Source: an uncultured Chromatiaceae bacterium (GTDB lineage: Bacteria; Pseudomonadota; Gammaproteobacteria; SZUA-140). From it: DNA of 64,000 bases. Each line of letters opens with the position of its first letter. Position 1 is the first letter of the stretch. Location: NCBI GenBank assembly GCA_964605155.1, contig CAZSAK010000001.1, forward strand, positions 150,124 to 214,123, in the 5' to 3' direction. The notes beneath the pieces were generated by a model. The model saw only the letters and a list, made by a program, of their open reading frames with translations, did no database searches and was not told the DNA's origin. This document shows, in pieces, positions 15,484 through 35,469 of the stretch. The position numbers and the translations under genes are program-made.

Positions 15484-16848
15484 TTGTGTATTTTATCAGG
15501 GACGAACAACGTATTGCCGAGATGGTGTAAGCGCAGCGGCAACCTGCGCGGAAATATAGGCATACTTGTTGCGATAGCGCTGGTAACGATCAGCGCACGA
15601 GCGGCCGATGTCGGCGTACCGGAGCCTGAGCAGATATTTGTGGTGACTGTGGCCGAGAAGGATGCCACGCACCCCAATTTCGGGATCGGCAGCAAGCTGG
15701 GTATGGTTGTCGACGGCGTACAAGGAAAAGAGTTGATACTGACACGTGGCAAAACCTATGCGTTTAAAGTTGAAACCAACGTTCAACACGATTTTTATCT
15801 TACTACCAGTCCCGTCGGCCGGGGTGCCGAAGTGCTGACGGAAGGGGTGACCGGGAATTTTACCTATCGCGGCATTGTGACCTTTACACCATCCGGCGCG
15901 ACTCCGGATATCGCCTACTATCAGTGCCGGAACCACAAGGCAATGGGCGGCAAGCTGCATATTGTAGACCCGGGTGAAGAAGGCACGGTTGTTTTAGAGT
16001 CTGTGCAAAGTCGGGAAGAGGCACCGTCCGCTAATGCCGGCAACAATGAGACGTCAATCGTTAGTGAATCGCAGGTCAATCAAAAGATCAGCTTTGCGGA
16101 GATGTTCATCAATCAATCACAGGCGGCCAAACGCATTACCCAGGGGACCAATGCCGATGCCCTGGCCATATACCGGCAATCACAGGAAACCCTTGCTGCT
16201 GCAAGGGAGAGCGTTGACCTGGGCAATTTCGGTCAGGCCATGAGTAGCGTCGACGAGGCCTTGCGTCTGATGAGTGAGGCGTCACGGTTGGTACCAAGTG
16301 CCGCACAAATCGAAGAACAGCGCAGCCGCTTTGAGGAGTTGCAGGAAGGCGTCAAGACATTCGAGGCATCGTACACGAAAAACCTGCAGCGCCTGTCGGG
16401 CCAGGAAGGAAAGGATATCGATCGACTTGATCTCGAAGAGATTCATAAGATGGTGGATCAGGCGACCAGGCTTGGCAACGACGGCCAGTATGTCGAGGCA
16501 AACAGGCTGCTTGCCAGGGCGCAGAGAAACATTACTGCTGTCCTCAGTAAAATGCTCGACAATACCACCGTCGTATACGACAAGAATTTCGATACTCCGC
16601 TTGAAGAGTACGAATATGAGCTGGCCCGTTATCAGAGCTATGAAGAATTGGTTCCAATCGCAATCGAACAAAAACAACCATCGAAACGGGCTATTGAGTT
16701 AATGGATCAGTTTGTCGAGAAGGCCAAGGGCCTGAAGGATCAGGCCGATCAGGAAGCCGCAAGCGAAAACTACACGACCACGATCCAGATGCTCCAGGCG
16801 GCTACCGACCACTTGCAGCGCGCGTTACAGATTGCCGGTGTGAGATAA
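15484..16848 (+). CDS. Cupredoxin-like domain fused to an alpha-helical repeat region of about 270 aa
   Basis: Signal-like N-terminus. H(QHDFY)-X45-C-X2-H-X2-M in YYQCRNHKAMGGKLHIV has the amicyanin-type Cys-His-Met loop spacing. The C-terminal half is Ala/Glu/Gln-rich with three helical repeats of about 45 aa. No in-frame ATG lies near the N-terminus, so the start (TTG 15484, TTG 15514 or CTG 15544) is uncertain. Confidence 0.55.
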   Translation: MCILSGTNNVLPRWCKRSGNLRGNIGILVAIALVTISARAADVGVPEPEQIFVVTVAEKDATHPNFGIGSKLGMVVDGVQGKELILTRGKTYAFKVETNVQHDFYLTTSPVGRGAEVLTEGVTGNFTYRGIVTFTPSGATPDIAYYQCRNHKAMGGKLHIVDPGEEGTVVLESVQSREEAPSANAGNNETSIVSESQVNQKISFAEMFINQSQAAKRITQGTNADALAIYRQSQETLAAARESVDLGNFGQAMSSVDEALRLMSEASRLVPSAAQIEEQRSRFEELQEGVKTFEASYTKNLQRLSGQEGKDIDRLDLEEIHKMVDQATRLGNDGQYVEANRLLARAQRNITAVLSKMLDNTTVVYDKNFDTPLEEYEYELARYQSYEELVPIAIEQKQPSKRAIELMDQFVEKAKGLKDQADQEAASENYTTTIQMLQAATDHLQRALQIAGVR

Positions 16849-16901
16849 CGTGAAGCGGCTAGTGACGCCGCCGCTGTCCTAACAGGGGGACATATTTAAA
16901 T

Positions 16902-17519
16902 ATGAAAATGAATATGTTTAATAACCGCAGTCACCTCGTGTGGCTCTGTATGTTGTGCCTTGTCATGACAGCGGCTCTCAGGGCCGCGGAGAACAACGGT
17001 GATGGGCGGCAACAGTCGCAATCGAAGCTGATTTATTCCCGGGGACTGCATTTCCAGACAGAAGGCGAGATCGTACCTATTGAGAAGGACGGCATTCACG
17101 ATCCCGAGAATCCTGCGGTCAAGGTCCTGCAGGAACCCTATGAGGCGATGAAAAATTTCCCCAGAGATACACAAGGCATCATTGATTGGGTACAGGTATT
17201 GAGGCAGGGGCTGATCGATCCTCGCAAAAGCCTGACCGGCGAGGAACAGATGTTCCCGGTGGATTTCGACATTATCCTCAAGAATACCGGCTCCATGCCA
17301 CATGTCAGGTTTCCTCACCAGGCCCATACTGAATGGCTGACCTGTGCAAACTGTCACCCGCTTATATTCATACCACAAAAAGGGGGTAACCCCATTACGA
17401 TGTCAGGCATCATTCAGGGAAAATATTGTGGTGTTTGTCACGGCAAGGTTGCCTTTCCGCCCACGATGAATTGCGGCAGATGTCACTCCGTAGCCAATGA
17501 AGTCAACCTGATGCGTTGA
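16902..17519 (+). CDS. Periplasmic c7-type trihaem cytochrome
   Basis: Signal peptide. DGIHDPENPAVKVLQEP. VRFPHQAHTEWLTCANCH...KYCGVCHGKVAFP...CGRCH. Confidence 0.8.
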   Translation: MKMNMFNNRSHLVWLCMLCLVMTAALRAAENNGDGRQQSQSKLIYSRGLHFQTEGEIVPIEKDGIHDPENPAVKVLQEPYEAMKNFPRDTQGIIDWVQVLRQGLIDPRKSLTGEEQMFPVDFDIILKNTGSMPHVRFPHQAHTEWLTCANCHPLIFIPQKGGNPITMSGIIQGKYCGVCHGKVAFPPTMNCGRCHSVANEVNLMR

Positions 17520-17582
17520 TGTGAAGCAGCAAGTGTCAACATGTGTCAACGCAAGGTGCTGACTGACGAGCAGGCGAATGCA

Positions 17583-18563
17583 ATGAACAGATCAGCGACT
17601 ATCTTAATTATGACGGTCATCGTTTTCGCGATAGCCGGCTGCGCCTCATTGATGAATGCCCGGAACCCGGCGGCGAATGGTCAAAACAATGCAAACGCCG
17701 GACAGGTGGTTTTCTGGGAGACGATCGACGGCGGCACACAAGGCAATGCGGTGATCGGTGTCGATCATGTACGTTTTGTGCGCCCGGTTGCCGTTGCCGC
17801 GCGTGGAAATTTTATCTACGTGGTGGATGCCGGCAAGGACCTGGTGTATCGCTATGCTCGGGATTTCGGCACGCTTACCGTGTTGAAGGATTTACGCTCC
17901 GTCGTGGCGGGCGAAGTGCGGGATATATATGTCGACGGTGACCTGTCCTTTTATATCACCGATACCGACGGCGGACGCGTGCTGCATTTTGATCCTGACG
18001 GCAACCTGGTACAGGTATTCGAGGACAAGCGTAACCTGGCCAGACCGGTCTCGATCATCGTCGACGAGACCAGTGGCCTGATCTACATTGCGGATGGTTT
18101 CAATGACGATGTGATGATCTTCAACCGTCTGGGTGCATTGCAGGGCGCCATCGGAGCGCGCGGGACGGATGCAGGTGAATTTACCAATATACAGGCCATC
18201 GCCTCGGGGCCTGACGGCATCTACGTGGCATGTCGGCTCGGTCACCGGGTTCAGGAAATTAGTCGCGATGGCGACTATATCAAGTCCTTCGAAGCAAATA
18301 CCGTAACGTTTCCGCTCGCCATCGTCGTCGATCGGGACAAGCGCGCATTTGTCGCCGATTACCTCGACAATACCATCAAGGTCTACGCCGATGGCCGGCT
18401 GATTGACCGGCTTGGCGGTTCCGGCTCGACACCGGGACGCTTCAAGCGTATCACCGGGATGTGGCTCGACGAAGGGCAGTTGTATGTCGCCGACAGTCTC
18501 AACGAGCGCATTCAGGTGGCGCGCATCATGCCGTTGAACGACTCACAGGTTACCAATCCATGA
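17583..18563 (+). CDS. NHL-repeat beta-propeller lipoprotein
   Basis: Lipobox FAIAGC. Repeated NHL units such as IYVVDAGKDLVYRY, IYIADGFNDDVMIF, AFVADYLDNTIKVY and LYVADSLNERIQV. Start chosen at MNRS (17583). Confidence 0.8.
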   Translation: MNRSATILIMTVIVFAIAGCASLMNARNPAANGQNNANAGQVVFWETIDGGTQGNAVIGVDHVRFVRPVAVAARGNFIYVVDAGKDLVYRYARDFGTLTVLKDLRSVVAGEVRDIYVDGDLSFYITDTDGGRVLHFDPDGNLVQVFEDKRNLARPVSIIVDETSGLIYIADGFNDDVMIFNRLGALQGAIGARGTDAGEFTNIQAIASGPDGIYVACRLGHRVQEISRDGDYIKSFEANTVTFPLAIVVDRDKRAFVADYLDNTIKVYADGRLIDRLGGSGSTPGRFKRITGMWLDEGQLYVADSLNERIQVARIMPLNDSQVTNP

Positions 18564-18584
18564 TGTCCGGATAATTGTCAAATC

Positions 18585-19649
18585 ATGAGGTACAGCACCC
18601 ATAAAATCGTTTTGTTTTTGCTGGTCTGCTGTTTGGTGGTTTCCGGTTGTGCCCAGACCCACAGCGTCCTGCGTTACAATGTCAACGATGAACCATCGCA
18701 GGTGTGGCCCTCTGAACCTGAAAAACCCCGTTATCGTTATGTCGGTGAGCTGACCGGCGAGCAGAATATCATCAACGACAGTAAAGAACGCTCTTTCGGC
18801 AGCAAGTTGCTGGGCTGGCTTACAGGGCTTGTTGCGGGTAAACGGAAACCGACCGTACTGCAGCGACCACAAGGCGTGTATGTCGACCAGGCGGGGCGTA
18901 TCTATATATCGGATGTCAGCCGCAGTGCCGTTTACGTGTTTAACGAAACCGAAGGGACGCTCGACGTGTGGGAGATGGCGGGCAAGAATATCCGTTTTGA
19001 GACCCCGGTCGGGATGACCGAGGATTCCTCGGGTGACCTGCTGGTCGTGGACGCCGATCTGGGTTATGTCGTGCGCCTGAATCAGCAAGGCCAACCTGTC
19101 GGCAAATTCGGCAAAGGCCTGTTCAAGCGCCCCACCGGTATCGCATTCGATGCGGTCAACGACAGGATCTTTGTGGCGGATACTCACGACAATAACATCA
19201 AGGTCTTTGATGAGGCTGGAAACCTGCTGGATACACTCGGCGAGTTCGGAGCTCAGGATGGTCAGTTCAACAGCCCTACCTATCTTGCGTATAAAGAAGA
19301 CCAGCTCTATGTCACCGATACCCTCAATGCACGCATCCAGGTCTTTTCTGCGAGCGGTGACTATATCCGGTCGATCGGTAAACGCGGCCTGTACGTCGGT
19401 GATCTTCCCCGTCCCAAGGGCGTTGCCGTGGACCAGGACAACAATATCTACGTGGTGGAATCGTATTATGATTATCTGTTAGTATTCAGTGACAAAGGAG
19501 AGTTTCTACTACCCATTGGAGGGACAGGAAGCGGCGTTGGTGAGTTTTACCTTCCCGCGGGTGTATGTACTGACCAGCGCAATCGGGTATACGTTGCCGA
19601 TGCCTTTAACGGTCGTGTAGTGATATTACAATATTTGGGAGCGGCATGA
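18585..19649 (+). CDS. NHL-repeat beta-propeller lipoprotein
   Basis: Lipobox VVSGC. NHL units IYISDVSRSAVYVF, IFVADTHDNNIKVF, LYVTDTLNARIQVF, IYVVESYYDYLLVF and VYVADAFNGRVVIL. Confidence 0.8.
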   Translation: MRYSTHKIVLFLLVCCLVVSGCAQTHSVLRYNVNDEPSQVWPSEPEKPRYRYVGELTGEQNIINDSKERSFGSKLLGWLTGLVAGKRKPTVLQRPQGVYVDQAGRIYISDVSRSAVYVFNETEGTLDVWEMAGKNIRFETPVGMTEDSSGDLLVVDADLGYVVRLNQQGQPVGKFGKGLFKRPTGIAFDAVNDRIFVADTHDNNIKVFDEAGNLLDTLGEFGAQDGQFNSPTYLAYKEDQLYVTDTLNARIQVFSASGDYIRSIGKRGLYVGDLPRPKGVAVDQDNNIYVVESYYDYLLVFSDKGEFLLPIGGTGSGVGEFYLPAGVCTDQRNRVYVADAFNGRVVILQYLGAA

Positions 19650-22306
19650 GACGGCAGTTACAGGGCATGTTGTTGACACTGTTTGCGGCTTCGATACTGG
19701 TCGCAGGTATCGCCCACGCTGCGCGCATCTCCGATATCCAGAATACCAAGCATAATTTTTCCGCCACGGTACAGCCCTCCCCCGACGTCAACCGCGTGGC
19801 ACACGCTACCACCGAATCACAGATCTGTGCCTTTTGTCACACGCCGCACGGTGCTACCAAGGAACCTCGCGCACCGATATGGAACCGTACCCTGTCCAGC
19901 GCAACCTATATACCGTTCAATTCCGGATCACTGGATGCGACGGATCTTGGACAGCCGGGCGGCAAATCCAAACTCTGTCTGTCCTGTCATGATGGAACCC
20001 TGGCATTGGGGGCGGTCAATGTGCTGAACCGTGTTGAGCTGAAGAAAAACAATCAAACCATTCCCTTCACGGGAACCATGCCTGACGGCACGATCCCCGA
20101 AGGACTGGGCGCGACCACGGGATTTACCCGCAGGCTGGGGGTTGACCTGACCAACGACCATCCGATCTCATTTACCTTCGACAGTGCGCAGGCGGCCCGC
20201 GACGGAGAGTTGCGGGATCCTTCAGCCGTATCGCATATCGCAGAACGCGTGCCGGGGGTCAAGCCCCTTATACCGATCGAAGACAACAAGGTGGAATGTA
20301 TCAGTTGTCATGATCCGCATATCCGTTCCGACGTGCCGGGTGAAAACATCAAGTTCCTGCGCGTCAACCGCTTTCAGAAACAGCCTCCCTCGCAAGGCAC
20401 CTTCAATGCGGACAACGATATCATCTGTCTGGCCTGTCATGACAAGGCGGGTTGGGTCGGTTCGGCCCATGCCAATATCGCCGTCGGTAACAAACGCTAC
20501 AGTGTGCCCGCCGCGGATTTACGTGAATTTCCACGTGATATCGAGGTGTGGCAGGCAGCCTGTCTGAATTGCCATGATCCACACACCGTGCAGGGGGCTC
20601 GCAGGATATTGCGCGAAGGTACCGATGGCCCTGTGTTGACGACGGCCAGTGGCGCCAAGTACAAGCAGGGTGGTAACTCCGCCATCGAGCAGGTGTGTTA
20701 TGCCTGCCACTCGGCCGATGGCGGTGTTTTGCAGAATCAGGGCACCTCGAATTTCGAGGTGCCGAATATCAAGACGGACTTCACCACCATGTTGCGTCAC
20801 ATGCCGATTGCGAGCATCGATCAGCCCGCGGGGTTTGAGGTGCACGACATCGGTACCGGTGACTCCATCCAGGGCGATCAACGCGGCAAGGATTTTATCG
20901 AATCGCGGGAGAATATCGGCAAGGGCAATCTCCATAACCGTCATGCCGAATGTACCGATTGCCATAATCCGCACCGCGTGATGAAAAACCGGCTTTTCAA
21001 TGCGGACAATACCGTCCCGGATCCTGCCGGTACCCATGAGCATGAAGACGGTGTGCCACATACCAATCTGGCCTCCGGCGTGCTGCGCGGCATCTGGGGG
21101 GTTGAGCCCGTATACGGTACCTCGGAGTTCGGCAGTGAACCGGTTACATTCGAGGTCAAGCGGGGTGATCCCACCGTCGGTAGCAGCACCGCCGTCAGTG
21201 CGCCCTATGTGACGCGTGAGTACCAGGTGTGCATGAAGTGTCACTCCAACTATGCCTATGATCAGCCGCCGTTGCTGGGGTCGTTTACCGGCGGCACACC
21301 GCCCGGCACCAATGCACTGACCCGTTATACCAACCAGGCAATGGAATACCAGACACCGCTCGGACATGATGGCGAAGGCACTGCGCCGACACCCACCGGC
21401 GCCTATGTCGGCGCGGCGACATGTACGTTTACATCGACCGATACCGATAACGTTGACCATGTCATCACAGGGACGCTCGACGAGAACGGCGGCTGCGCGA
21501 ATTTTGTCGACAATAACCATCGTGCATGGCATCCCGTTACCAACCCAACGGGACGTACACCACCGGTGCGTAAGGCCGATGCCGATGACTGGCGCTCACC
21601 GTTCAATGCAGCGGTCGGTAGTCAGACCATGTACTGTACCGATTGTCACGGCTCTACAACTGCCCCGGACACGGTAGTGCCGAACGGCGGTGAAAACGGT
21701 TCTCCGTGGGGCCCGCACGGCTCCAATGACAATTTCCTGCTTAAGGGTCCATGGGACAATCAGACGGGAGAATTTCAGTCGAATGGATTGTGTTTTCGTT
21801 GTCACGACTTCAGGCAGTATGGCAGGGGTCTGCCGCCACCCTATACCAATCCGGGGTTTCCGGATCAGGTTCGGCAAAGCGGATTCAGGATGTCGGTCGG
21901 TTCCGCATCCGGATGTCTGCCGTTCAAGTTGACCAACCTGCATGCTGGTCACTCCAGTATTATCACCAATTTCCGTTGTACCTATTGTCATGTTTCTATT
22001 CCTCATGGCTGGAAGAACAAGGTATTCCTCGCCAATTTGAATGATGTGGGCCTTGAGGCACCGCTATTACCGGGCGAGATACCCAACGCCGCCGGCAGCC
22101 GTCAGGTCAGGGTCAGCGTGGGTGGCACTGCCCCGCGTTACTACAACGGTCCCTACTACAACGGCGCTGCATTAAAGGTGCGCTATTTCTCACGCAGCGG
22201 TGAATGGACGGATGCCAATTGCGGTTCCTCGGGTCCGCCCGGTAACGGAATTACAGGATTCAACTGGATGAATGGCAGTAATGAATCTTGTGCGAATCTG
22301 CCATGA
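19646..22306 (+). CDS. Undecahaem c-type cytochrome, 886 aa, secreted
   Basis: Signal peptide ...GIAHA. Eleven CXXCH motifs: CAFCH, CLSCH, CISCH, CLACH, CLNCH, CYACH, CTDCH, CMKCH, CTDCH, CFRCH, CTYCH. The ATG overlaps the stop of the preceding NHL gene (ATGA). Confidence 0.88.
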   Translation: MRRQLQGMLLTLFAASILVAGIAHAARISDIQNTKHNFSATVQPSPDVNRVAHATTESQICAFCHTPHGATKEPRAPIWNRTLSSATYIPFNSGSLDATDLGQPGGKSKLCLSCHDGTLALGAVNVLNRVELKKNNQTIPFTGTMPDGTIPEGLGATTGFTRRLGVDLTNDHPISFTFDSAQAARDGELRDPSAVSHIAERVPGVKPLIPIEDNKVECISCHDPHIRSDVPGENIKFLRVNRFQKQPPSQGTFNADNDIICLACHDKAGWVGSAHANIAVGNKRYSVPAADLREFPRDIEVWQAACLNCHDPHTVQGARRILREGTDGPVLTTASGAKYKQGGNSAIEQVCYACHSADGGVLQNQGTSNFEVPNIKTDFTTMLRHMPIASIDQPAGFEVHDIGTGDSIQGDQRGKDFIESRENIGKGNLHNRHAECTDCHNPHRVMKNRLFNADNTVPDPAGTHEHEDGVPHTNLASGVLRGIWGVEPVYGTSEFGSEPVTFEVKRGDPTVGSSTAVSAPYVTREYQVCMKCHSNYAYDQPPLLGSFTGGTPPGTNALTRYTNQAMEYQTPLGHDGEGTAPTPTGAYVGAATCTFTSTDTDNVDHVITGTLDENGGCANFVDNNHRAWHPVTNPTGRTPPVRKADADDWRSPFNAAVGSQTMYCTDCHGSTTAPDTVVPNGGENGSPWGPHGSNDNFLLKGPWDNQTGEFQSNGLCFRCHDFRQYGRGLPPPYTNPGFPDQVRQSGFRMSVGSASGCLPFKLTNLHAGHSSIITNFRCTYCHVSIPHGWKNKVFLANLNDVGLEAPLLPGEIPNAAGSRQVRVSVGGTAPRYYNGPYYNGAALKVRYFSRSGEWTDANCGSSGPPGNGITGFNWMNGSNESCANLP

Positions 22307-25039: not shown

Positions 25040-25678
25040 ATGAAATCGAGACTCGCATGGTTGATACCGGTTTGTCTGTTCCTCCTGATCGGTAATGTCG
25101 CGGCATTGCCGCAACAGTTCCGTGAGGGCGTGCATTATCAACTGATCACGCCAGCTTCCTCCCCGACTCCCGGCGGCAAAATCGAAGTGATCGAATTCCT
25201 GTGGTACGGCTGCGAGACCTGCTATGTCATGCAGCCATACCTGCAGCGCTGGGCGGACAGCAGGCAGGGATCGATCGACTACAAACGTATCCCGGCGGTG
25301 ACCAATGATGACATGATCCTGCTGGCGCGTGCCTTCTATACGGCCGAAGCGCTTGGTATCAGCGACATGGTTCGCCATGCCTTGTTCGATGCCATCCACC
25401 GGCACAGGCGCCCGTTGAAATCGGAACAGGACCTTGCCGCTTTTTTTGAGGAACAAGGTGTTGAGCAGGATGATTTTCGCCAGGCCTTTCGCAGCAACTA
25501 TGTCGCAGGCAAGGTCAGGAAGGCCAGGATCCTGGGGAGTCGTTACGGCATTGCCGGTGCGCCGACCATCGTGATCAATGGCAAATACCGCGTCGATTCA
25601 TCCATGGTGGCCAGCCCGCAGGAATTGATTGCCGTCATCGATTACCTGGTGAACAAGGAGAGCGGAAAGAAGAGTTAA
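25040..25678 (+). CDS. dsbA: DsbA-family thiol:disulfide oxidoreductase
   Basis: Signal peptide. The redox motif FLWYGCETCY (CXXC) and a C-terminal GAPTIVINGKYRV are typical of DsbA. Confidence 0.8.
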   Translation: MKSRLAWLIPVCLFLLIGNVAALPQQFREGVHYQLITPASSPTPGGKIEVIEFLWYGCETCYVMQPYLQRWADSRQGSIDYKRIPAVTNDDMILLARAFYTAEALGISDMVRHALFDAIHRHRRPLKSEQDLAAFFEEQGVEQDDFRQAFRSNYVAGKVRKARILGSRYGIAGAPTIVINGKYRVDSSMVASPQELIAVIDYLVNKESGKKS

Positions 25679-25867
25679 AGATTATTCTGTAATAGTTTAT
25701 GACGGGATCATTTGTAAAAAATTCAAACAATCTTTTCAGTTTTATAAGTAATACTACTTATTCCACAGCGTGATCATTGGGATAGGAATCCCATAGCAAG
25801 TCAACATTACCAGTTGGTAATTCCTTTCTTTTTGTGTTTGATTCAATATCGATACAAAGGACAAATT

Positions 25868-25975
25868 GAACACCATGGTGTGACAAGCTGGTTTTTTGTT
25901 ATGATTGGGAGGGTTATTTTCAATCAACCACTATGAACACCATGTTTACCGCCGCGTTCATCGCGGCGGTTTTTT
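25868..25975 (+). ncRNA. Candidate small RNA A (5' end undetermined)
   Basis: Four elements in order: palindrome CACCATGGTG (25871-80), hairpin GATTG-[GGAGGGTTATTTT]-CAATC (25903-25), a conserved box CACTATGAACACCATGT, and an intrinsic terminator CCGCCGCG-ttcat-CGCGGCGG plus T6 (25949-75). Candidate B shows the same order and spacing. Confidence 0.45.
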
Positions 25976-26180
25976 GATAAGTACCGGTAATCATGCCGGA
26001 CTTTTTTCGTAGGCTGTTCTGCTATCTCTTGTACTAGTAGACTCATTCACATCGCATGTGATATCCAATTATTTCTTTATTAGAAACTTTACATTTTGAA
26101 TTCTTAACCATGCATGTCCTAGCCCATTTGGGCTAGGACATTTGGGGAATATCATTAATTAAGGTATTCGTGCAGAATCA

Positions 26181-26289
26181 GATCGTGGTGATCTACTTGG
26201 TTAGTTCGTGGTAATGGGGAGGATTACTACGTAAAAATCACTGTAAACACCATGTCTTGGCCGCCGCTTCCAGAAGCGGCGGTTTTTTT
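26181..26289 (+). ncRNA. Candidate small RNA B (5' end undetermined), paralog of A
   Basis: Four elements in order: hairpin GATC-gtggt-GATC (26181-93), hairpin GTAAT-[GGGGAGG]-ATTAC (26211-27), a conserved box CACTGTAAACACCATGT, and an intrinsic terminator CCGCCGCTT-ccag-AAGCGGCGG plus T7 (26261-89). Confidence 0.45.
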
Positions 26290-26356
26290 AGTTAAGATAT
26301 CGGGGAGGTAAATCAAGATGGTGGTGGGATAAAAGAAATGGATGTTCGCTTGCGAT

Positions 26357-27043
26357 CTATTCGATTAATCCGAGTTTGCGTGCATTTTCAACTGCCATTG
26401 TCCGGGTTTTGGCGCCAAGTAGGTTTCTGGCACAAGTTGTATGTGCCTTTACCGTATGGTGCGATACGTCCAATTTGCTGGCAATCTCCTTGTCGGTGAA
26501 ACCGTTTGCAATGAGATGCAAAACTTGCAGTTGCCGGTTTGTCAGCCCGGCCTTTGGCTTATCTTGTGATGTATCGTGTTGCTGAGCTATTTCCAGCAGA
26601 GTTTTGGGTATATAGGTACCACCGGCGAGTACGAGATTGATCGCCTGTACGATGATTTGTGGTGATGTGCTTTTAGGGATAAAACCCGATGCTCCCTTAT
26701 CAATGATCGTTTTCATCAATTCACGCTCTTCGGTGCTGGATATGAAAATGACAGGAGTTGCAGGGAATGAATTTTTTAATCTTGTTAATAATTCGGTGCC
26801 TCTGCAGTTTGGCATATAGTAGTCTATGATAAAGATATTAATGTCGGGGTTATCGGATGCGAGATTCAGGACATCTTCACCATTCGTGGCATCGAGTATT
26901 TCTGTATTCATGAAATTGTTGTGTATGACCATCTTTATGCCATCACGAACCATAAAATGGTCATCCGCTAAGAGGATTTTGATTTTTGTATCCTTGTCCG
27001 GCGAGGGTCGTTCATTACTGACGGGTTGTATGTTCATCGTCAT
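26357..27043 (-). CDS. NarL/FixJ(LuxR)-family response regulator
   Basis: Receiver domain (LLADDH, IFIIDYYMP, GFIPKS) plus a GerE-type HTH (LTNRQLQVLHLIANGFTDKEIASKLDVSHHTVKAH). AAGGAA lies 8 nt upstream of the ATG at 27043. Confidence 0.88.
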   Translation of the reverse strand: MTMNIQPVSNERPSPDKDTKIKILLADDHFMVRDGIKMVIHNNFMNTEILDATNGEDVLNLASDNPDINIFIIDYYMPNCRGTELLTRLKNSFPATPVIFISSTEERELMKTIIDKGASGFIPKSTSPQIIVQAINLVLAGGTYIPKTLLEIAQQHDTSQDKPKAGLTNRQLQVLHLIANGFTDKEIASKLDVSHHTVKAHTTCARNLLGAKTRTMAVENARKLGLIE

Positions 27044-27556: not shown

Positions 27557-27574
27557 AATTGCCGGGAGGCAATT
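27557..27574 (+). promoter_or_regulatory. 5'-leader hairpin AATTGCC-[GGGA]-GGCAATT upstream of the TonB-dependent receptor gene
   Basis: Perfect 7-bp stem with a GGGA tetraloop, about 50 nt before the ATG. The Shine-Dalgarno region itself reads AGGGAGGGA. Confidence 0.3.
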
Positions 27575-27622
27575 AAACAATACAGATTCAGTCAGGTATA
27601 TGAATCTCTATAGGGAGGGATC

Positions 27623-29704
27623 ATGTGCTTCTTTCGTATCGGGACCGCGCTTTCCTTATGCGCGGTCCTTATAAGTAGCGTATGCGCTTCTGAAACAGGG
27701 GATCAGCAGCAGGATTCGCCAGAATTCTTATTTCCCGGTGTTACCTATGCATCTATCGCCACCGAGACGGAAAAGCCCACCTCCGAAGCACCGGCCGTTA
27801 TCAGTGTCATCACTGCAGAAGACCTCCACAATCACGGTATCACCTCGATTGAACAGGCACTGGAAGAAGTGCCGGGTGTTTATAGTCCATACCGGTTTTT
27901 AACAGGGAATTTCGTGTTCAGAGGTGTTCGCTCACAGATTTCAACTAATCCCGAGATTTTGCTGTTGGTAGATGGTATCCCGCATATTGAAGTTTTTGAT
28001 GGAGTCAACCAGTTATATATCACACGAATCCCTATTGCCAATATACAACGCATAGAAATCATTCGCGGACCAGGATCAGCAGTTTATGGCGCCGATGCCT
28101 TTGCGGGTGTGATCAATGTTATTACTAAGACATATAAAGATTATCATGGTGATGAGTTTCGTGGGAGAGCAGGATCCTATGATACACAGGAAGCTGATGC
28201 GATATTAAAGGGGAACCTTGATAATATAGGCACATTACTATCGGTACAGGCAAGAACAACTGATGGACATAGGCCATTGATAACAGCAGATGCCCAAACA
28301 TTTTTTGATACTCAATTTGGAACTAATTCATCGTTAGCGCCGGATAAGGCGAATACTTATTTTAAAGAGGTAAACGCCATTCTTGAATTGTTTAGTGAGA
28401 ACTGGCGAATAAGATTTCAGGCACGATCCCACAAGCTTGGATTAGGTGTCAGTTTTAATAATGCTTTGTCAGATACAGGTGACGGTTTTGCAGACACCTA
28501 TACCTTGGATTATTTTTATGATAATTCTGATTTGTTGAAAGAATGGATTTTTAAAATCAAGATCGGTGCTCTATATACTCGATCAGGGCAGGATAAACCT
28601 TTGCTACCACCTGGTGCGGTCAATGGTACATTTCCAGATGGAGTAATTCAGGAATTTGAGCAAGTATTTCGTCATAATTCAATAGATATCAAGGGATTTT
28701 ACAAAGGTAGCAGTCAGCATGAATTGATTGTAGGTGCTGGGGCATATTATGGGGGTAATGATGATATTCATGAGAAAATTAATTTTAGCATTCTTCCGGG
28801 TAATGTAGTTATTCCTATTGGGTCGCTTATGAATGTTGCATCTGATCAAACATTTATCCCTGAAAAAACACGCCGTATAAAATATATCAATTTCAATGAT
28901 GATTGGAATTTGGTGCGTGATACTATTTTAAGTTATGGAGCACGCTACGATGATTATAGTGATATTGGAGGAACTTTTAATCCACGTATAGCACTAATCT
29001 GGTTAACAACACAGGAATTAACAACAAAATTAATTGCTAATCGCGCATTTCGTGCCCCAACGTTTGTCGAATTATACTCACGCAATAATTCCTTTCAACA
29101 AGGAAATCCTGATCTTGATCCATCTATAATTGAAACATTAGAAATCGCCTTAGAAAAGCGTATGTTTAATAATGGCGCCTTGAATCTCAGTATCAGTCAT
29201 CACAGAATTACGGATTTTATCGAGACTATTCAAACTGCGAGTGGTCAACTAGTCTCGATGAATAGCAGTAGCGATATCACGGGAAATGCCTTTGAACTTG
29301 AAGCAATTTTGCCATTAGCTAAAGATATAACTCTAAAAAGTTCTTATTCATATCAACGAAATATGCGTGATGGGCGGGAGATCTATAATGCTGCGTCACA
29401 TCATAAGGTCTATGCTGGTCTTGATTGGCAATTCAAGAACAACTGGAGTCTCTATACTAATGTTTTGTTCGTCCGTGATTTTACGCGTGATATAAATGAT
29501 CCACGGGATGATCTGGGTAGTAGCACTTTTGTTGGTACTGTCCTGCAATATTCTTCCCCTACAAATAGATGGGATTCGTATCTGTCAATCCGAAATATAT
29601 TTGATGAGGTGGCAGTGTCTCCCAGTGACGATTACAGGTTCCTTCCCAACGATTATCCCTTGCCAGGCACGCATTTCATCTTCGAAGTGCGGTATCGGAT
29701 GTAA
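27623..29704 (+). CDS. TonB-dependent outer-membrane receptor
   Basis: Signal peptide. Plug signature APAVISVITAEDL..HGITSIEQALEEVPGV and IEIIRGPGSAVYGADAFAGVINVITK. Long beta-barrel. Low GC. Confidence 0.88.
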   Translation: MCFFRIGTALSLCAVLISSVCASETGDQQQDSPEFLFPGVTYASIATETEKPTSEAPAVISVITAEDLHNHGITSIEQALEEVPGVYSPYRFLTGNFVFRGVRSQISTNPEILLLVDGIPHIEVFDGVNQLYITRIPIANIQRIEIIRGPGSAVYGADAFAGVINVITKTYKDYHGDEFRGRAGSYDTQEADAILKGNLDNIGTLLSVQARTTDGHRPLITADAQTFFDTQFGTNSSLAPDKANTYFKEVNAILELFSENWRIRFQARSHKLGLGVSFNNALSDTGDGFADTYTLDYFYDNSDLLKEWIFKIKIGALYTRSGQDKPLLPPGAVNGTFPDGVIQEFEQVFRHNSIDIKGFYKGSSQHELIVGAGAYYGGNDDIHEKINFSILPGNVVIPIGSLMNVASDQTFIPEKTRRIKYINFNDDWNLVRDTILSYGARYDDYSDIGGTFNPRIALIWLTTQELTTKLIANRAFRAPTFVELYSRNNSFQQGNPDLDPSIIETLEIALEKRMFNNGALNLSISHHRITDFIETIQTASGQLVSMNSSSDITGNAFELEAILPLAKDITLKSSYSYQRNMRDGREIYNAASHHKVYAGLDWQFKNNWSLYTNVLFVRDFTRDINDPRDDLGSSTFVGTVLQYSSPTNRWDSYLSIRNIFDEVAVSPSDDYRFLPNDYPLPGTHFIFEVRYRM

Positions 29705-29952
29705 CCAGAACTGTTGTAAGTATAATAAAAATAGCTTGGCACACAGTATACACAGTGGAACGACAGTATCTCTTTAATTGTTCATCCCTGAAGAGAATTA
29801 TTTTTTCTCGATTCTTGTATAGCAATTCTTACATAAGAAAATTAATCCCTGATTCTTTGTTGCTGCTGATCTGTAATAACGTCAAGGGTCGTTTCACTGT
29901 TTGGGAAGAAACAATCCTGATAAAGGTCACGTCATTCAGTAGGCATCTAGGG

Positions 29953-30885
29953 TTGATCAGGAATGTAGTTATATCATTTCTATTAATGATATTGTTTGTC
30001 AATCCTGTCATAGCCGGGAACCCGGTTACCGTAATATATCCTGTTTATCATACTGATACCGATCGGATCATAGTTGAAATACGTGGAGGTATTCGTAGTC
30101 AACAAGCAAGTAATATAAACGAAATAGCCTATGATCCACTGCAGGGCACCAAAGAATTGCGAGATAAGATCGCGATACTGTCCGATAAGGATATTGTAAT
30201 TACATTGACCAATGAGATGGAAAGAGTTGTTCGCGCATCAGGATTCAGTGGCCAGTTGATAGATGGTGTCTCTGTTGACCTCACAAAAAAGGATTCTACT
30301 GTCAATATCGGTATCCAGCCATCGCCATATACATATGTTGAAATATTAAAAAAGCTGAGTCCTCAAGTAAAAAGACTGATTTATTTTTCTCCCTTATCCG
30401 GTGATACCTTAATCAAGGGAGGCTCGTTCCAGGTGTCTGGTAACAATCATATTGATATACATCATATATCTGTAGATGGCATTAATGCTGCAATGCATGA
30501 GGTCAATGATATCCTTTCCCACGCCGATCCTACAACAACAGCTCTCTGGTTGCCAAGCCGGGTGTTATCCATGTCCAACAACACTGTGCTCAGATACGTG
30601 TTGCAAGAGGCATGGAAGAGATCTTTTATTGTTTTTACAGATTCCCTCGATGCAGTGTTACGGGGATTATTGTTTACCCTGATCCCAGACTACCATGCCT
30701 ATGGCGAGTACCTTGGGCAGAAGGCAACGGATATCGCATCAGGTGAAAAATATCCTGTATCGGACTCGATAAGATACTTTAATGATGTTTACCTGATGCT
30801 CAATCAGAGATTCGCGATCCATCTGGGAGTTAATGCCAATCGTTCGGTATTCGATAAATACAGGATTGTGGTGCCGGCAAAATGA
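29953..30885 (+). CDS. Periplasmic ABC-substrate-binding-like protein (PF04392-like architecture)
   Basis: Signal peptide IRNVVISFLLMILFVNPVIAG. LKKLSPQVKRLIYFSP and ALWLPSRV...RSFIVFTDSLDAVLRGLLFTLIPDYHAYGEYLG...IASGEKYPVSD resemble that family from memory. No transporter genes are adjacent. The start is uncertain: the ORF is open from GTG 29755, and I chose TTG 29953. Confidence 0.5.
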   Translation: MIRNVVISFLLMILFVNPVIAGNPVTVIYPVYHTDTDRIIVEIRGGIRSQQASNINEIAYDPLQGTKELRDKIAILSDKDIVITLTNEMERVVRASGFSGQLIDGVSVDLTKKDSTVNIGIQPSPYTYVEILKKLSPQVKRLIYFSPLSGDTLIKGGSFQVSGNNHIDIHHISVDGINAAMHEVNDILSHADPTTTALWLPSRVLSMSNNTVLRYVLQEAWKRSFIVFTDSLDAVLRGLLFTLIPDYHAYGEYLGQKATDIASGEKYPVSDSIRYFNDVYLMLNQRFAIHLGVNANRSVFDKYRIVVPAK

Positions 30886-32819
30886 TAAATAATCAGAAAG
30901 CCGTTAACTCGATCTGGCAATATTTTACATCATCACATGGCGTGATACTACTGACCTACACGTTGGGTTTTGCCGTACTTGCCCTGCTTACTGCAATAAT
31001 CATCTCCTATATAAGCACAAAGGAGGCGGAGAGTGTTTTTATTGATGAAGGTAGGGGCTTTGTTAAGCTTGCGGCACAGTCCGCTGTTGTTCCGCTTCTC
31101 ACAGGGTCTGCTGAAAACAGTAATGACTTTCTCAATCCGCTGCTTTCTTATCAGAACGTTTCCCATATTAGTATTTATGATAGAGAAAATAATGCGTTTT
31201 TTACCGGGGGCAAGATACCGGCATGGACACCAGAGCGTGATATCTTAAAACATATCAAGCATGCACGGTTAATTCACGAAGATAATGACCACTGGTATTT
31301 TGCGGCGCCAGTTGTGACTGAAGGAAAGGATAGATCGTGGATAGGTTATGTATTTATGGATATAACGAAACAAACTGTCAATACGCTTGGCAGTAATATA
31401 CTTACATACACGATCTGGATCTGCGGGATAGCGGCTTTAATTCTATGGTTAATGCTCTATCTCGTCCTTAGACGTGTTACCTTACCGATCAGGAAGATCG
31501 CTGGATTGATGGATCTGTCCAGGGGGGTCAAACAGCATTACCCTGTTCCAAAACACATACCTTCCGATGTCAAGACAATCTACAGTTCATTCAATAATAT
31601 GCTTGACCAGATTAAATCACGGGACAAGGCACTCAAGGAGCATGTCAGTAATATGGAACATATTGTTGAGGTAAAAACACGTGACCTCACCGAGAAGAAT
31701 ATACAGTTGGAAGATGCACATAACAAGGCGGTTGCAGCCGGTCATGCAAAAGACCTGTTTGTTGCAAACGTCAGTCATGAGCTACGCACCCCGATTCAGG
31801 CAATCCTGGGTAATTGCGAACTGTTGGGAGATAAGTACCAGGACAAGGAACTGGCCAAGATCGTGGTATCTGCCAATCAACTGCTGAATCTCGTTAATAA
31901 TATCCTTGATCTGTCCAAGATCGAAAATGACAAGCTGCACGTCAGACCAAGAACCTTGCTGGTGCGGGACATCATGACCCAGATAGCGGAAGCTATCGCG
32001 CCGGTCATCGAGGTCAACAATAACTCATTTGAAATTGATATTGACGAAAATGTATATGAAGTAACAACTGACCCTGAGATGATCGCGCAAATCATCAACA
32101 ATCTTCTTAGCAATGCAGGCCGTTATACAAATAATGGCCATGTAACCTTCAGGGTTTCAAAAAAATGCAAGCATAATATTGACTTCATATATTTCGAGGT
32201 CATTGATAACGGGATCGGAATTGCAAAAGACAAACTCGGCAGGATTTTTCAGCCCTTTGAACAGGTGGACATGAGCAAAACACGTCTGTATGGCGGTACG
32301 GGACTGGGGCTTGCGATCTCGAAACGTCTGGCAAAGCTGTTGGGTGGAGAGATTACCGTACAAAGCGAACCCGAGAAAGGCTCAACCTTTAGTCTTTGTA
32401 TACCCGAAGGTGAGCCAATGAATGAAACATTCAAGGCGCATGATCAGCGAACAATCGAGCATGTGACTTATAAAATATTGCTGGCCGAGGATCATCCATT
32501 TATCAGTGATGCGGTGAAGCAATTACTGGAGGGAGATGGGCATGAGGTAAAAGTAGCAATAAACGGGACTCAGGCGCTTGAGTTACTGCAAAATGATTCC
32601 TTTGAGATAGCATTAATCGATGTACATATGCCGGAACTCGATGGAATCGAGGTGATCAGAAAATTTCAGGCATCTAGACCAGATGCCGAAATAAAGCTAT
32701 TCCTGCTCACAGCGGATGTGACCGAAGCCCTGCGCCAGCAGGCCGAACAGCTGGGTATAAAGATCATCCAGAAACCTTTCAGCCGTGCACAGCTTGCCGC
32801 ACAGTTGATTGATAACTGA
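30882..32819 (+). CDS. Hybrid sensor histidine kinase (periplasmic domain-TM-HAMP-HisKA-HATPase-REC)
   Basis: Two TM helices flank a periplasmic region of about 140 aa. H-box FVANVSHELRTPIQAILG. N/G boxes NLLSNAGRYT, DNGIGI, GGTGLGLAISKRL. C-terminal receiver (ILLAEDH..., ALIDVHMPELDG, QKPF). The ATG overlaps the preceding stop (ATGA). Confidence 0.88.
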   Translation: MINNQKAVNSIWQYFTSSHGVILLTYTLGFAVLALLTAIIISYISTKEAESVFIDEGRGFVKLAAQSAVVPLLTGSAENSNDFLNPLLSYQNVSHISIYDRENNAFFTGGKIPAWTPERDILKHIKHARLIHEDNDHWYFAAPVVTEGKDRSWIGYVFMDITKQTVNTLGSNILTYTIWICGIAALILWLMLYLVLRRVTLPIRKIAGLMDLSRGVKQHYPVPKHIPSDVKTIYSSFNNMLDQIKSRDKALKEHVSNMEHIVEVKTRDLTEKNIQLEDAHNKAVAAGHAKDLFVANVSHELRTPIQAILGNCELLGDKYQDKELAKIVVSANQLLNLVNNILDLSKIENDKLHVRPRTLLVRDIMTQIAEAIAPVIEVNNNSFEIDIDENVYEVTTDPEMIAQIINNLLSNAGRYTNNGHVTFRVSKKCKHNIDFIYFEVIDNGIGIAKDKLGRIFQPFEQVDMSKTRLYGGTGLGLAISKRLAKLLGGEITVQSEPEKGSTFSLCIPEGEPMNETFKAHDQRTIEHVTYKILLAEDHPFISDAVKQLLEGDGHEVKVAINGTQALELLQNDSFEIALIDVHMPELDGIEVIRKFQASRPDAEIKLFLLTADVTEALRQQAEQLGIKIIQKPFSRAQLAAQLIDN

Positions 32820-32839: not shown

Positions 32840-33835
32840 TCATGGTGTGAAATTGAAATCGCCGCGTATCAGAATAACCGTGATCAGAACAGCAAGGGTG
32901 ATCACCCAGATAACGATATAGGTCGCGATGGACTGGCGGGCCTTTCTTTTTTCTAACCAGGTGCGTGGCCTGACGCCCTTGGCGAGCAAGACCAGTTTGG
33001 CGGACAGGTTGACGCAAACGATATTCACGGCCAGCAGCAGGCCCGAGCCGCCCATCAGATTGAAATGACCCTGACCGAGCATCAGGCCCATCGTCGCCGC
33101 AGGGGGTAACAATGCGACCGCGACCATCACACCGACCAGCACACTGGGCAAGCCCGTGGTGAGTGACAACACCGCCGCGGCACCTGACGCCAGTGCCAGT
33201 ACCACACCATCGAGACCGACGTCGGTGCGTGCCATGAGTTCATGGCTGGTAAAATCACCGGGCCAGAAATAGCCGATCGTAGCGGTGACGGCAATCGCAA
33301 ATACCAGTCCCGCCAGATTGGATTGCAGGGATTTCCACATCAGTTCGGTATCACCCAGCGCCGTGGCCAGTGCTAGGGCGATGTTGGGTCCCAACAGCGG
33401 TGCGATGACCATGGCCCCGATGATGACGGCGACATTGTCTTCAATGAGACCAATGGCTGCGACGATGGTGGAAAGGAACACCAGTAACAGAAAATTACCG
33501 TCCAGGCGGCTGTCCTTCTCGATACTGTTATACAGTTCTTCGCGTGTTGTGGTGGGGGTTTTCTTTTCGGGTGATTCCTCTTTTTCCTCCTGCTTACGCG
33601 GCAGGGTCACCTCCAGCGGGATGACATTGATCCGGGTCTTGTCGCTAGCACCCAGGGCGCTCTGCAGGGCGTCGAGCACGTCCTGGCGCTTTTCCGGAGA
33701 CACGATCATGCGAATGATCTGGCGGCCGTCCTCACTCGGGGGGCTGGTCCAGACATCCTCGCAGTCGTGTTGTTCGGCGATGCCGGAGACGGTATCGACG
33801 TAACCGCTGTCGGCGATGACTTCGATGATCTTCAC
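32840..33835 (-). CDS. TIGR00341/DUF389-family membrane protein
   Basis: Soluble N-terminal domain MKIIEVIADSGYVDTV...IRMIV..EKRQDVLDALQ, then glycine-rich TM helices typical of DUF389. Confidence 0.65.
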   Translation of the reverse strand: MKIIEVIADSGYVDTVSGIAEQHDCEDVWTSPPSEDGRQIIRMIVSPEKRQDVLDALQSALGASDKTRINVIPLEVTLPRKQEEKEESPEKKTPTTTREELYNSIEKDSRLDGNFLLLVFLSTIVAAIGLIEDNVAVIIGAMVIAPLLGPNIALALATALGDTELMWKSLQSNLAGLVFAIAVTATIGYFWPGDFTSHELMARTDVGLDGVVLALASGAAAVLSLTTGLPSVLVGVMVAVALLPPAATMGLMLGQGHFNLMGGSGLLLAVNIVCVNLSAKLVLLAKGVRPRTWLEKRKARQSIATYIVIWVITLAVLITVILIRGDFNFTP

Positions 33836-35469
33836 CGCTTCTCCTCGATAAAGCCAAGGCTGGGCGTAAAGGCACGCGGTGACCAGGGATCTTGCATCGG
33901 TGTTTCCGTCGATGCCGCATGGATCTTTTTCACTGCATTCCTGATGAGAGCTTGTAACTCATCGTCGTTGTCCGGTTTGTTACGGCTATAGAGTAATGTC
34001 TGTACGGCCCGAACGGCACGACGGACATCGTCATCCTGTCCGTGGCGTCCTTCCCACTGATTGAGCCCCTCTTCCAGCGTGCGTGATCCGAATGCATCGA
34101 GCAATGACGTCTTCAGGGGATGTTGATCCGTATGGACAGTTCGTGACGTGTGTTTCGTCGGTGAGGCATCGCTCTTGCGTTTTTGTGTATGCCACCACAA
34201 GCCGAGGGTAACCAACCAGAGGGTGACGGCAGTCATGCTGATTACCTGCCATATCGTGATGGCTGGATGTGCCTCGGGCTCTTCAGGGACCGACCGTGCC
34301 GAGACCGGCAGACCAGGGATCGTTGTCGCATTATCTGTCGTGCGTGGCGCCGGTTTCACGGAGAATGCCCGGCTCTCCAGTGTCGCGATGTCCATCGTAC
34401 CCCGATCCGGATCGAAGTAGGGGATGCGGATTGCCGGCAAGCTGAAGTCACCCGCCGACAGGGGAATGATATAGTTTCGATAGGTTGCGACACCCATGAC
34501 CGGTGCGGATGACTGATCGATGGTGCGCTGTGTCGCATCACTATACATTTTAATTGTGTCCGGCATGTCCAATGCAGGCAGCTCTTCGGGAAATGCTGCA
34601 GGACTCACCGGGGCACGGATCGTGATGGTCCAGGGCGTTGCGTGATTGACCTGAAGGGGTTCGCTGAATGATGTTTGATTGAGTATCGGCCTGCCGACCA
34701 TGGCAAGTGGCGGTATGTCATCCGGCAGTGCCCTGACCTTGATATGCTGTTTCTCGAACGGCAGGCGGATCCTGCGGCCGTCACCGGTCTCGATCCATAT
34801 ATCGGGCAGATAGAGTGTGTAGTCGCGGCTTAACAACGGGGTGATGGCCCATGCCGTGCGTACGACGTTATAGGTGACGCCGCCAACCCGTTCCTCGCGT
34901 TGTGTCTGCTCCAGCTTGTGCAGTTCCAGTTGCAGTGGCTCGGTATCGATATTGCCGCCGAGTTTTGCGGACTTGAGTTCGATGCGATGATACAGGTCGA
35001 GATAGGCAATGATCTGTTCACGTTGCCATGCGCTGTCGTTGGTGACACCGCTGCGGGCAAAGATCTCTGGGTTTGTTTCGGCACTGCCCTTGTGTACCCG
35101 TAAATGTATTGGTTCCGACGACACCCCGTCGACGGTGAATGCAGGGATGATGAACTCGCCGGCCCGCTTGGGAAACAGCTCGACCGTGATTTCCGAGGTC
35201 GATCGGCCGTGGTTGCGCGAGATATTGAAACGATGTTCTTCGCGCGGCACGCCCAGCTCAAAATCGTCTGTCAGCAAGGTCAGGTCGACATTGGGTGAAA
35301 TCCCCTGGGCGCGCAGGCGCGTATCGCTGTTGACCAGGGACAATGTCACCACCACATATTCGTCATGCATGACCTCTTTCCTGTCCACCATCGCGGTCAA
35401 GGTTGCCGCCACCGACCAGGAACTGCTCAGCAGGCAGGCGATGAGCAGCAAGCTGCGACGGCCTACCAT
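33832..35469 (-). CDS. BatD-like protein (aerotolerance-operon type)
   Basis: Signal peptide, a large periplasmic beta-rich region and a C-terminal TM helix. Position as the last gene of a MoxR-DUF58-VWA operon. Start and stop overlaps on both sides. Confidence 0.6.
   Translation of the reverse strand: MVGRRSLLLIACLLSSSWSVAATLTAMVDRKEVMHDEYVVVTLSLVNSDTRLRAQGISPNVDLTLLTDDFELGVPREEHRFNISRNHGRSTSEITVELFPKRAGEFIIPAFTVDGVSSEPIHLRVHKGSAETNPEIFARSGVTNDSAWQREQIIAYLDLYHRIELKSAKLGGNIDTEPLQLELHKLEQTQREERVGGVTYNVVRTAWAITPLLSRDYTLYLPDIWIETGDGRRIRLPFEKQHIKVRALPDDIPPLAMVGRPILNQTSFSEPLQVNHATPWTITIRAPVSPAAFPEELPALDMPDTIKMYSDATQRTIDQSSAPVMGVATYRNYIIPLSAGDFSLPAIRIPYFDPDRGTMDIATLESRAFSVKPAPRTTDNATTIPGLPVSARSVPEEPEAHPAITIWQVISMTAVTLWLVTLGLWWHTQKRKSDASPTKHTSRTVHTDQHPLKTSLLDAFGSRTLEEGLNQWEGRHGQDDDVRRAVRAVQTLLYSRNKPDNDDELQALIRNAVKKIHAASTETPMQDPWSPRAFTPSLGFIEEKR

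Follow-up and report, generated by a model that had tools for sequence, protein, structure and literature searches.

Sibling structured RNA genes with a conserved G-rich loop beside a NarL-type phosphorelay: a candidate regulatory small-RNA family

We analyzed a 64-kb stretch of DNA (64,000 nucleotides, hereafter the window) from an uncultured gammaproteobacterium of a salt-marsh metagenome, and in particular two units, A and B, that lie on the + strand between dsbA and the convergent gene of a NarL/FixJ-type response regulator. Among named L13 proteins, the nearest, at 77% identity, are labeled 'Gammaproteobacteria bacterium'. Upstream of the two units, the genes at 10323-22306 follow the order uetABCDEFGHIJ and are succeeded by ccsB/ccsA, an nrfG-like TPR gene and dsbA (to 25678). 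A preliminary description, made from the letters of this DNA, had proposed that an ORF-free gap of about 680 bp holds two paralogous, terminator-ended small RNA (sRNA) candidates beside a phosphorelay. The gap measures 678 bp from the dsbA stop (25678) to the stop of the regulator gene (26357) and holds just two short mechanical open reading frames (ORFs). The proposed neighbors were recovered as well: an Hpt protein and a regulator with Response_reg and GerE domains stand convergent to the units, and a hybrid kinase of HisKA-HATPase-REC architecture lies beyond. The regulator begins with MTMNIQ, and the periplasmic binding protein of the sensor operon has an orthologue in a relative, locus L004, that matches PF04392.

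As proposed, the two units share layout and spacing, and they are alignable over their whole length at about 61% identity. GGGAGG stands at 25907-25912 in A and 26217-26222 in B, in both units 16 nt from the CACT of a 17-nt box, CACT(A/G)T(G/A)AACACCATGT, at 25929-25945 and 26239-26255. This box has two exact matches in 64 kb, where 0.52 would be expected even with three mismatches allowed. A third motif copy reported at 25869 is present, AACACCATG at 25869-25877, and occurs there because CACCAUGGUG is self-complementary. The strong terminators also described before were recognized by our terminator scan, with stems of 9 bp followed by T6 in A and 11 bp followed by T7 in B. Units A and B fold far more favorably than their shuffles (z = -4.7 and -4.6).

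The consensus fold is a single rod-shaped hairpin of about 75 nt. From its base, it consists of the closing helix P1, a variable middle section, a covarying apical stem and, at the tip, an invariant, purine-rich 7-nt loop, NGGGAGG, that resembles a Shine-Dalgarno (SD) sequence. P1 has 7 bp, is almost invariant and pairs 5′ C(A/G)UGGUG with the CACCAUG of the box. On the 3′ side, the rod is followed by a short U/C-rich linker and a CCGCCGC/GCGGCGG-U6-8 terminator, and this rho-independent terminator on the RNA strand is kept in all copies. The box had been described as conserved and single-stranded; it is conserved but not single-stranded, since it forms the 3′ strand of P1. CACCAUG is paired in 15 of 17 copies scored, with a mean unpaired probability of 0.00-0.16, the exceptions being copy 2 of locus L106 (0.29) and a 5′-truncated copy in L013 (0.80); single-sequence folds, the RNAalifold consensus and partition-function probabilities all agree on this. 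The small separate hairpin previously placed at the start of each unit is actually one strand of P1, and relatives lack the GATC...GATC hairpin of B. GGGAGG does lie in a hairpin loop in both units, but the 13-nt loop ascribed to A belongs to the minimum-energy fold of one sequence only, and the comparative structure of unit A has a 5-bp stem and the 7-nt loop UGGGAGG.

Two alignments bear on the pairing. In an ungapped, loop-anchored alignment of 14 distinct copies, made independently of the covariance model, the apical stem is 78% paired compared with 35-53% when the partners are slid, 9 of its 14 pairs show changes on both sides, and none of 500 shuffles reached the observed value. In the model alignment of 18 distinct copies, 95.5% of the cells pair compared with 30-68% when slid, and nine pairs are compensatory, although this alignment was fitted to the model's structure and its counts lean towards that structure. 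The second pair of P1 varies among A-U, G·U and G-C. Approximately 44 of the 449 paired cells in the model alignment (~10%) are G·U, which would be A·C mismatches on the opposite strand; the RNA strand is therefore fixed as +. The T-runs lie on this strand, and the opposite strand reaches a covariance score of at most 23 bits. No conserved reading frame was found in the copies: the sole recurring ATG is that of CACCATG, which reads ATA in two loci (L012, L014) and ACG in two others (L013, L183), and an ATG beside the loop (AATGGGG) is missing from A-type copies. A small-peptide reading was ruled out because the start codons are not conserved.

In the predicted structures, the loop is the sole conserved exposed element of the RNA. 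It is unpaired with a probability of ~1.0 in all B copies and is open in the A-type copies of L001 and L173. In several other A-type copies (window 25906-25930; L006, L182), GGGAGG is predicted to pair with the downstream U/C-rich stretch (UUUUCAAUC, CCUC). Because B-type loops are open and some A-type loops are masked, the siblings may differ in activity.

Table 1. Features of the dsbA-regulator gap and the adjoining phosphorelay genes
Feature	Coordinates	Strand	Remarks
Palindrome ATTACCA-GT-TGGTAAT	25806..25821		upstream of unit A; candidate activator site, centered ~-42 from predicted start
Promoter-like motif TTGATTCAATAT of unit A	25838..25849	+	-10-like CAATAT 25844-25849; aligns with TTGATGCAnAAT of B units and with A-type copy of L006
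Unit A predicted transcript start	near 25856	+	inferred
sRNA unit A (A-type)	25869..25975	+	covariance-model score 102 bits, E ~1e-21
Unit A parts	P1 25874-25880 with 25938-25944; loop UGGGAGG 25906-25912; terminator stem 25948-25970 plus T6	+	folds, terminator scan
Weak second terminator-like hairpin (CCGGTAATCATGCCGG) plus T6	25984..26007	+	6 pairs, 9 nt after unit A terminator; similar sequence in L173, L001
Palindrome GTCCTAGCCC-ATTT-GGGCTAGGAC	26116..26139		upstream of unit B; candidate activator site, centered ~-57; unique in window
Conserved promoter-like region of unit B, TTTGGGGAATA ... TTCGTGCAGAAT	26141..26178	+	-10-like CAGAAT 26173-26178
sRNA unit B (B-type)	26179..26289	+	covariance-model score 102.7 bits; copy found in every relative
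Unit B parts	P1 26184-26190 with 26248-26254; loop GGGGAGG 26216-26222; terminator stem 26259-26284 plus T7	+	folds, covariation
Response regulator, NarL/FixJ family, REC + GerE helix-turn-helix (HTH), 228 aa	26357..27043	-	convergent to sRNAs; domain search
Hpt phosphotransfer protein, 132 aa	27015..27413	-	overlaps regulator start
Palindrome ATTGCC-GGGA-GGCAAT	27558..27573		hpt/TonB-receptor divergent promoter region; half-site shared with unit A palindrome
Sensor operon	27623..32819	+	TonB-dependent receptor 27623-29704; periplasmic binding protein 29755-30885; hybrid histidine kinase 30882-32819

The units are kept in relatives. Sixteen orthologues of the response regulator were found at 60-90% identity, all metagenomic, and the next homologues stand at no more than 39%. 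A covariance search in relatives, as suggested in the preliminary description, was run on the contigs of these orthologues with a model built from 10 copies. The RNA was found one to three times in each orthologous locus whose contig extends into the region (L001, L004, L006, L009, L012, L013, L014, L016, L106, L173, L182 and L183), exactly twice in the window (102-103 bits) and not at all in about 160 unrelated loci (~1 Mb). The family thus counted comprises 12 loci from other metagenomes, approximately nine distinct relatives, with one to three tandem copies each. Both types are present in L001, L006/L009, L173 and L182, which hold the unit A orthologues, and only B in L004, L012, L014 and L183; L106 has three copies, and L013 and L016 each have a single copy cut off by the contig end. 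The A-type and B-type orthologues form separate clusters, which points to an old duplication with both copies kept since. Without exception, the RNAs lie close downstream of the regulator-Hpt operon and point towards it, and wherever a contig spans both flanks the order is constant: dsbA, sRNA(s), convergent regulator-Hpt operon.

Outside this group, distant regulator homologues (37-39% identity) have the same module of TonB receptor, binding protein and hybrid kinase without the RNA and without a similar palindrome. A B-type pattern matched 43 times in GTDB species genomes, mostly high-GC ones, and the covariance model confirmed none of these matches; with this exact pattern, the family was thus not found in any named genome. 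In a pattern scan of metagenomes, the matches listed were mostly due to chance and only L106, L126, L172 and L173 were real; L126 is the same contig as L006, and L172 has the same sequence as L004. The L106 copies lie at 54-160, 275-385 and 638-747, and the most distant from the regulator no longer has GGGAGG; at its tip stands AGAGCCUCUUGAC, with a CCUCU partly complementary to the sibling loops. In the window, a further GGGGAGG occurs at 26302-26308, just 3′ of the unit B terminator (region 26302-26332), followed after 9 nt by a 4-codon ORF, ATGGTGGTGGGATAA. Its ATGGTGGTG part is kept, without the GGGGAGG, in the close relative L001, and L006 has neither.

The units of the window and L006 share 74-78% identity, which makes them as conserved as the coding flanks (dsbA 70%, regulator gene 72%) and sets them apart from the spacers (38-51%). 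These comparisons bear on an alternative, namely that the hairpin-T runs serve only to end the convergent dsbA and regulator genes, with the rest conserved by chance or as protein sites in the DNA. Both units do end in strong terminators at a junction of convergent genes, and in L004, whose single unit lies just 184 nt after dsbA, the terminator T-run abuts the stop codon of the regulator gene. However, a terminator needs no 75-nt upstream rod with an invariant loop, the compensatory changes and G·U pairs indicate selection on RNA pairing on one strand, the units match the coding flanks in conservation, and tandem duplication to two or three copies has been maintained. The preliminary description had itself allowed that the hairpins might be terminators only, with a box not conserved in relatives; box, loop and promoter-like region are all conserved among loci with regulators 60-90% identical. 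We therefore regard termination alone as very improbable, and the claim of paralogous, terminator-ended structured RNA genes stands, since relatives keep them and the stems covary.

The upstream regions are organized as well. An alignment of the upstream regions of six B units shows one series of elements before every B unit, in the order GTCCTAGCCC-N4-GGGCTAGGAC, TTTGGGnAATA and TTGATGCAnAAT, the last ending ~5 nt before P1. The palindrome core TAGCCC-N4-GGGCTA is exact in L001, L004, L006, L014, L173 and their duplicate contigs, has one mismatch in L106 and is reduced to one half-site in L012; it was not found in the ~160 unrelated pattern-match loci. In L183, upstream of the copy at 1313-1421 (-), GAGCTAGGACATTG occurs twice as a direct repeat that replaces the inverted repeat in the B promoter, and the half-site GCTAGGAC may therefore be the recognized unit. 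For the promoter-like segment of B, the window and L006 share 77% identity, compared with 41-46% for the spacers that flank it. L001 and L173 carry the unit A palindrome unchanged, L006 and L182 with a single mismatch, and in A units the -10-like motif sits further upstream than in B, leaving a variable 5′ leader. The palindromes and the TTGAT(G/T)CAnAAT motif stand at fixed distances from the units. Sigma-54 and RpoE-type promoters were rejected after reading the aligned upstream regions. Upstream of the putative promoter of sRNA A, at 25778-25793, lies another hairpin or palindrome, TGGGAT-AGGA-ATCCCA; its stem is kept in L001 and L173, and its loop varies among the window, L001 and L173 (AGGA, CGAA and TGGA).

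An origin from the 3′ untranslated region (3′-UTR) has to be weighed against these promoter-like elements. The RNAs would then be the structured 3′ end of a uet-ccs-dsbA transcript, released by processing, and the palindromes would serve other purposes. From the dsbA stop to unit A, neither reading nor scanning revealed a strong terminator, the + strand of the region gave no consensus sigma-70 promoter call, and the short distance from dsbA to the single L004 unit would suit such an origin. However, TTGATGCAnAAT and the palindrome keep their distance to P1 in every B copy and were duplicated with each unit, the spacer from dsbA to the promoter is only ~50% identical, close to random, and unit B lies beyond the strong terminator of unit A and so needs a start of its own. 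An origin from the dsbA 3′-UTR consequently seems to us a poor prospect.

The regulator is a candidate activator of these promoters. ATTRCC-N4-GGYAAT occurs exactly only twice in 64 kb, at 25806 and 27558; the half-site of unit A thus recurs 1.7 kb away, and only in the control region of hpt and the TonB receptor. At the latter site, the half-sites are kept in L001, L004, L006, L012 and L016, and the 4-nt spacer varies. As read from these sites, the arrangement fits a NarL-type dimer that would autoregulate its own system and drive at least sRNA A.

The circuit recalls several known systems, and the preliminary description had suggested kinship with CsrB/RsmXYZ or Qrr RNAs. This kinship was not borne out. 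At gathering thresholds, Rfam 15 matched only a tRNA gene in the window (6201-6271, -), and over 25600-26420 at E<=10 it gave 11 weak matches, none of them Csr/Rsm or Qrr; the best, Hrs1, covers only the terminator (23.5 bits, gathering 56.4). Among the 14 copies counted, most contain one or two GGA, all in the single apical loop, the exceptions being the B copies of L014 (four) and L012 (three) and copy 1 of L106 (none). On NF007018, the UvrY/SirA/GacA model with a cut-off of 280, the regulator reaches 90.5 bits; MctR (118.6), ErdR (110.3) and NarL (99.6) give higher scores, each short of the cut-off of its model. Domain search found no sigma-54-interaction/AAA+ domain in the regulator, and no conserved GG-N10-GC element was seen on reading the aligned upstream regions. 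Membership in CsrB/CsrC/RsmX/Y/Z was therefore rejected for want of an Rfam match, for the few GGA and because the regulator is no GacA/UvrY orthologue, and membership in Qrr because there is no Rfam match, no sigma-54 promoter and no NtrC-type regulator.

What the locus shares with GacS/GacA-RsmX/Y/Z and BarA/UvrY-CsrB/CsrC is a phosphorelay ending in a NarL/FixJ-type regulator, redundant sibling sRNA genes with an upstream palindrome, a weak promoter (here a putative one) and an intrinsic terminator, and a GGA-containing sequence in a hairpin loop. However, those RNAs display many GGA where these have one loop with one or two; here, the kinase has no fused Hpt domain and Hpt is a separate protein, the sRNA genes adjoin the regulator gene, and the palindromes (TAGCCC-N4-GGGCTA and ATTRCC-N4-GGYAAT) are unlike the GacA box, TGTAAG-N6-CTTACA. 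In Pseudomonas, the CrcZ gene lies directly downstream of the gene of its activator CbrB, with paralogues (CrcY) in some species; position beside the response-regulator gene and paralogous copies are thus common ground. In contrast, CrcZ is ~400 nt long, depends on sigma-54 and an NtrC-type regulator and carries A-rich CA motifs for Hfq/Crc, whereas the present RNAs are ~105-120 nt long, have a NarL-type regulator and a G-rich loop, and are convergent to the regulator gene. In the LuxU/LuxO-Qrr1-5 system of Vibrio, a hybrid kinase acts through a separate Hpt protein and a regulator on several ~100-nt sibling sRNAs, one of them adjoining the regulator gene, and hybrid kinase, separate Hpt and ~100-nt siblings beside the regulator gene recur here. 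Nevertheless, Qrr genes need sigma-54 and the NtrC-type LuxO, and the RNAs use a single-stranded seed and act through Hfq; no sigma-54 promoter accompanies units A and B, their regulator has a GerE HTH without AAA+, and Rfam gives no Qrr match. In Vibrio cholerae, VqmA, which has a LuxR-type HTH, directly activates the adjacent sRNA gene vqmR. An LuxR-type HTH regulator adjoins an sRNA gene in both cases, but VqmA is a one-component PAS-HTH receptor and no phosphorelay output, and VqmR is a base-pairing Hfq sRNA unrelated to units A and B in sequence and structure. The resemblance to known systems is plausibly one of circuit logic only, in which a phosphorelay would drive sibling sRNAs that display a GGA-containing loop.

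Following the logic of BarA/UvrY-CsrB and GacS/GacA-RsmXYZ, the RNAs might act as protein decoys: a GGGAGG/GGGGAGGA loop would mimic an SD sequence and titrate a translational repressor (CsrA/RsmA or another SD-binding protein), in this case as a minimal single-site RNA from one to three gene copies. GGA is central in the exposed loop of all B copies, and the B-type loops read GAGGAU, near the CsrB repeat CAGGAUG. Moreover, the invariant initiation region of the TonB receptor, AGGGAGGGAUCAUG, resembles the loop with its 3′ flank, the kinase is BarA-like (240 bits), the units resemble rsm genes in having a conserved upstream palindrome, and a purine-rich loop would be easier to explain as a decoy than as an antisense seed. 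However, most copies offer a single loop with one or two GGA, copy 1 of L106 offers none, and CsrA dimers need two sites where known sponges carry roughly 4 to 22. Additionally, the A of the ANGGA consensus is G here, Rfam gives no match to CsrB/CsrC/RsmX/Y/Z, the regulator is no GacA/UvrY equivalog, and the 64-kb window holds no csrA, which is uninformative for the whole genome. We consider the decoy unlikely.

Overall, we lean towards the view, with modest confidence, that A and B are sibling genes of a lineage-specific, non-coding, structured sRNA that is switched by the regulator and acts in trans through its G-rich loop. Judged by sequence, they make up a well-supported new structured sRNA family of a familiar kind, ~105-120 nt long, for which covariation, synteny and promoter conservation speak. 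The analysis establishes their paralogy, conservation, strand, structure, terminators and linkage to the phosphorelay genes; the start sites, the dependence on the regulator, the action in trans and the way in which targets are recognized are proposed. In the mechanism that we propose, each gene would have its own activator-dependent promoter, composed of the upstream palindrome and the weak -10-like TTGAT(G/T)CAnAAT. The hybrid kinase would pass its signal through Hpt to the NarL-type regulator, which probably turns the sRNA genes on, and the RNAs would then act in trans through the exposed loop, in the first instance by base pairing with target mRNAs at C/U-rich, CCUCCC-like sites. Among modes of action, we rank such loop-mediated pairing first and a decoy for an SD-binding protein such as CsrA second.

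Several observations weigh against this view of a regulator-switched, trans-acting sRNA. The sigma-70 consensus scan called no + strand promoter in the region, so the start sites are placed from the alignment alone; this result fits activator dependence but proves nothing. The palindromes of A and B differ, and one of the two may be the site of a different regulator. Repressing sRNAs do not usually have a G-rich seed, the prediction for copy A of the window leaves its loop mostly masked (unpaired probability ~0.05), and a trans-acting loop does not explain why P1 and the terminator stem are invariant at the sequence level. No RNA sequencing run that holds the region was found; the single run found, of unknown type, yielded a 226-nt low-depth contig with the promoter and part of unit A, which is uninformative. 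Target searches add to these doubts. CCUCCC occurs in no translation-initiation region of the window, and no conserved complementary target was found there. A perfect 8-nt match inside dsbA (25157) was rejected because it is not kept in L004 or L006, and a CCUCCC in the hpt leader because it is merely the variable, non-conserved spacer of the palindrome.

Other searches around possible targets and partners gave the following. RNAduplex runs against 57 initiation regions returned meaningless full-length duplexes. The leader and start of the TonB receptor gene, UGAAUCUCUAnAGGGAGGGAUCAUG (27600-27625), are identical save one or two bases in L001, L004, L006, L012 and L016, and its SD (27613-27619) resembles the sRNA loop; a hairpin predicted in this initiation region (UCUCU with AGGGA) does not exceed its shuffles in stability. 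Like csrA, the genes hfq and proQ are not in the 64-kb window, a negative that does not extend to the genome outside it.

The order uetABCDEFGHIJ has been described for Tenderiales (bioRxiv 10.1101/2022.05.06.490989; PMC10734462), where an island uetABCDEFGHIJ-ccsBA-nrfG...bat has a proposed role in extracellular electron uptake (bioRxiv 10.1101/2022.05.06.490989). In the window, the uet-like genes encode, in order, a tetraheme cytochrome, a peptidyl-prolyl isomerase (PPIase), a 590-aa protein without a Pfam match, three cytochrome-c7 proteins around a 454-aa protein without a Pfam match, two NHL proteins and an 886-aa multiheme cytochrome. The phosphorelay and the sRNAs interrupt the island, and beyond them lie Bat/VWA/MoxR genes on the - strand and a complete ccmA-H system I (33832-40624, 40728-47959). 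With ccsB/ccsA and ccmA-H both present, the two cytochrome-c maturation systems occur in one window. A second signaling module near cytochrome genes, at 49015-54047, consists of two Reg_prop (two-component regulator propeller) proteins followed by a HAMP-PAS-GGDEF-EAL protein.

Our literature search turned up no described regulator of the uet island. Since the phosphorelay and the sibling sRNAs lie inside it, they are, by their location, candidate regulators of this island. A bolder version, to which we give little credence, would make the RNAs minimal SD mimics in which a single GGGAGG loop on a rigid rod, in one to three copies under phosphorelay control, competes for whatever binds AGGGAGGGAUCAUG (a CsrA-like repressor or the anti-SD of the 30S subunit) and thereby forms a feedback loop that tunes the uet island in Tenderiales-like bacteria. 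For sRNA biology in general, the family is an expected kind of element and no surprise. It does offer a small system in which to test how one conserved G-rich loop can serve as the functional site of an sRNA, and as far as our literature search reached, the uet island has its first concrete regulator candidates in the phosphorelay and its sibling sRNAs.

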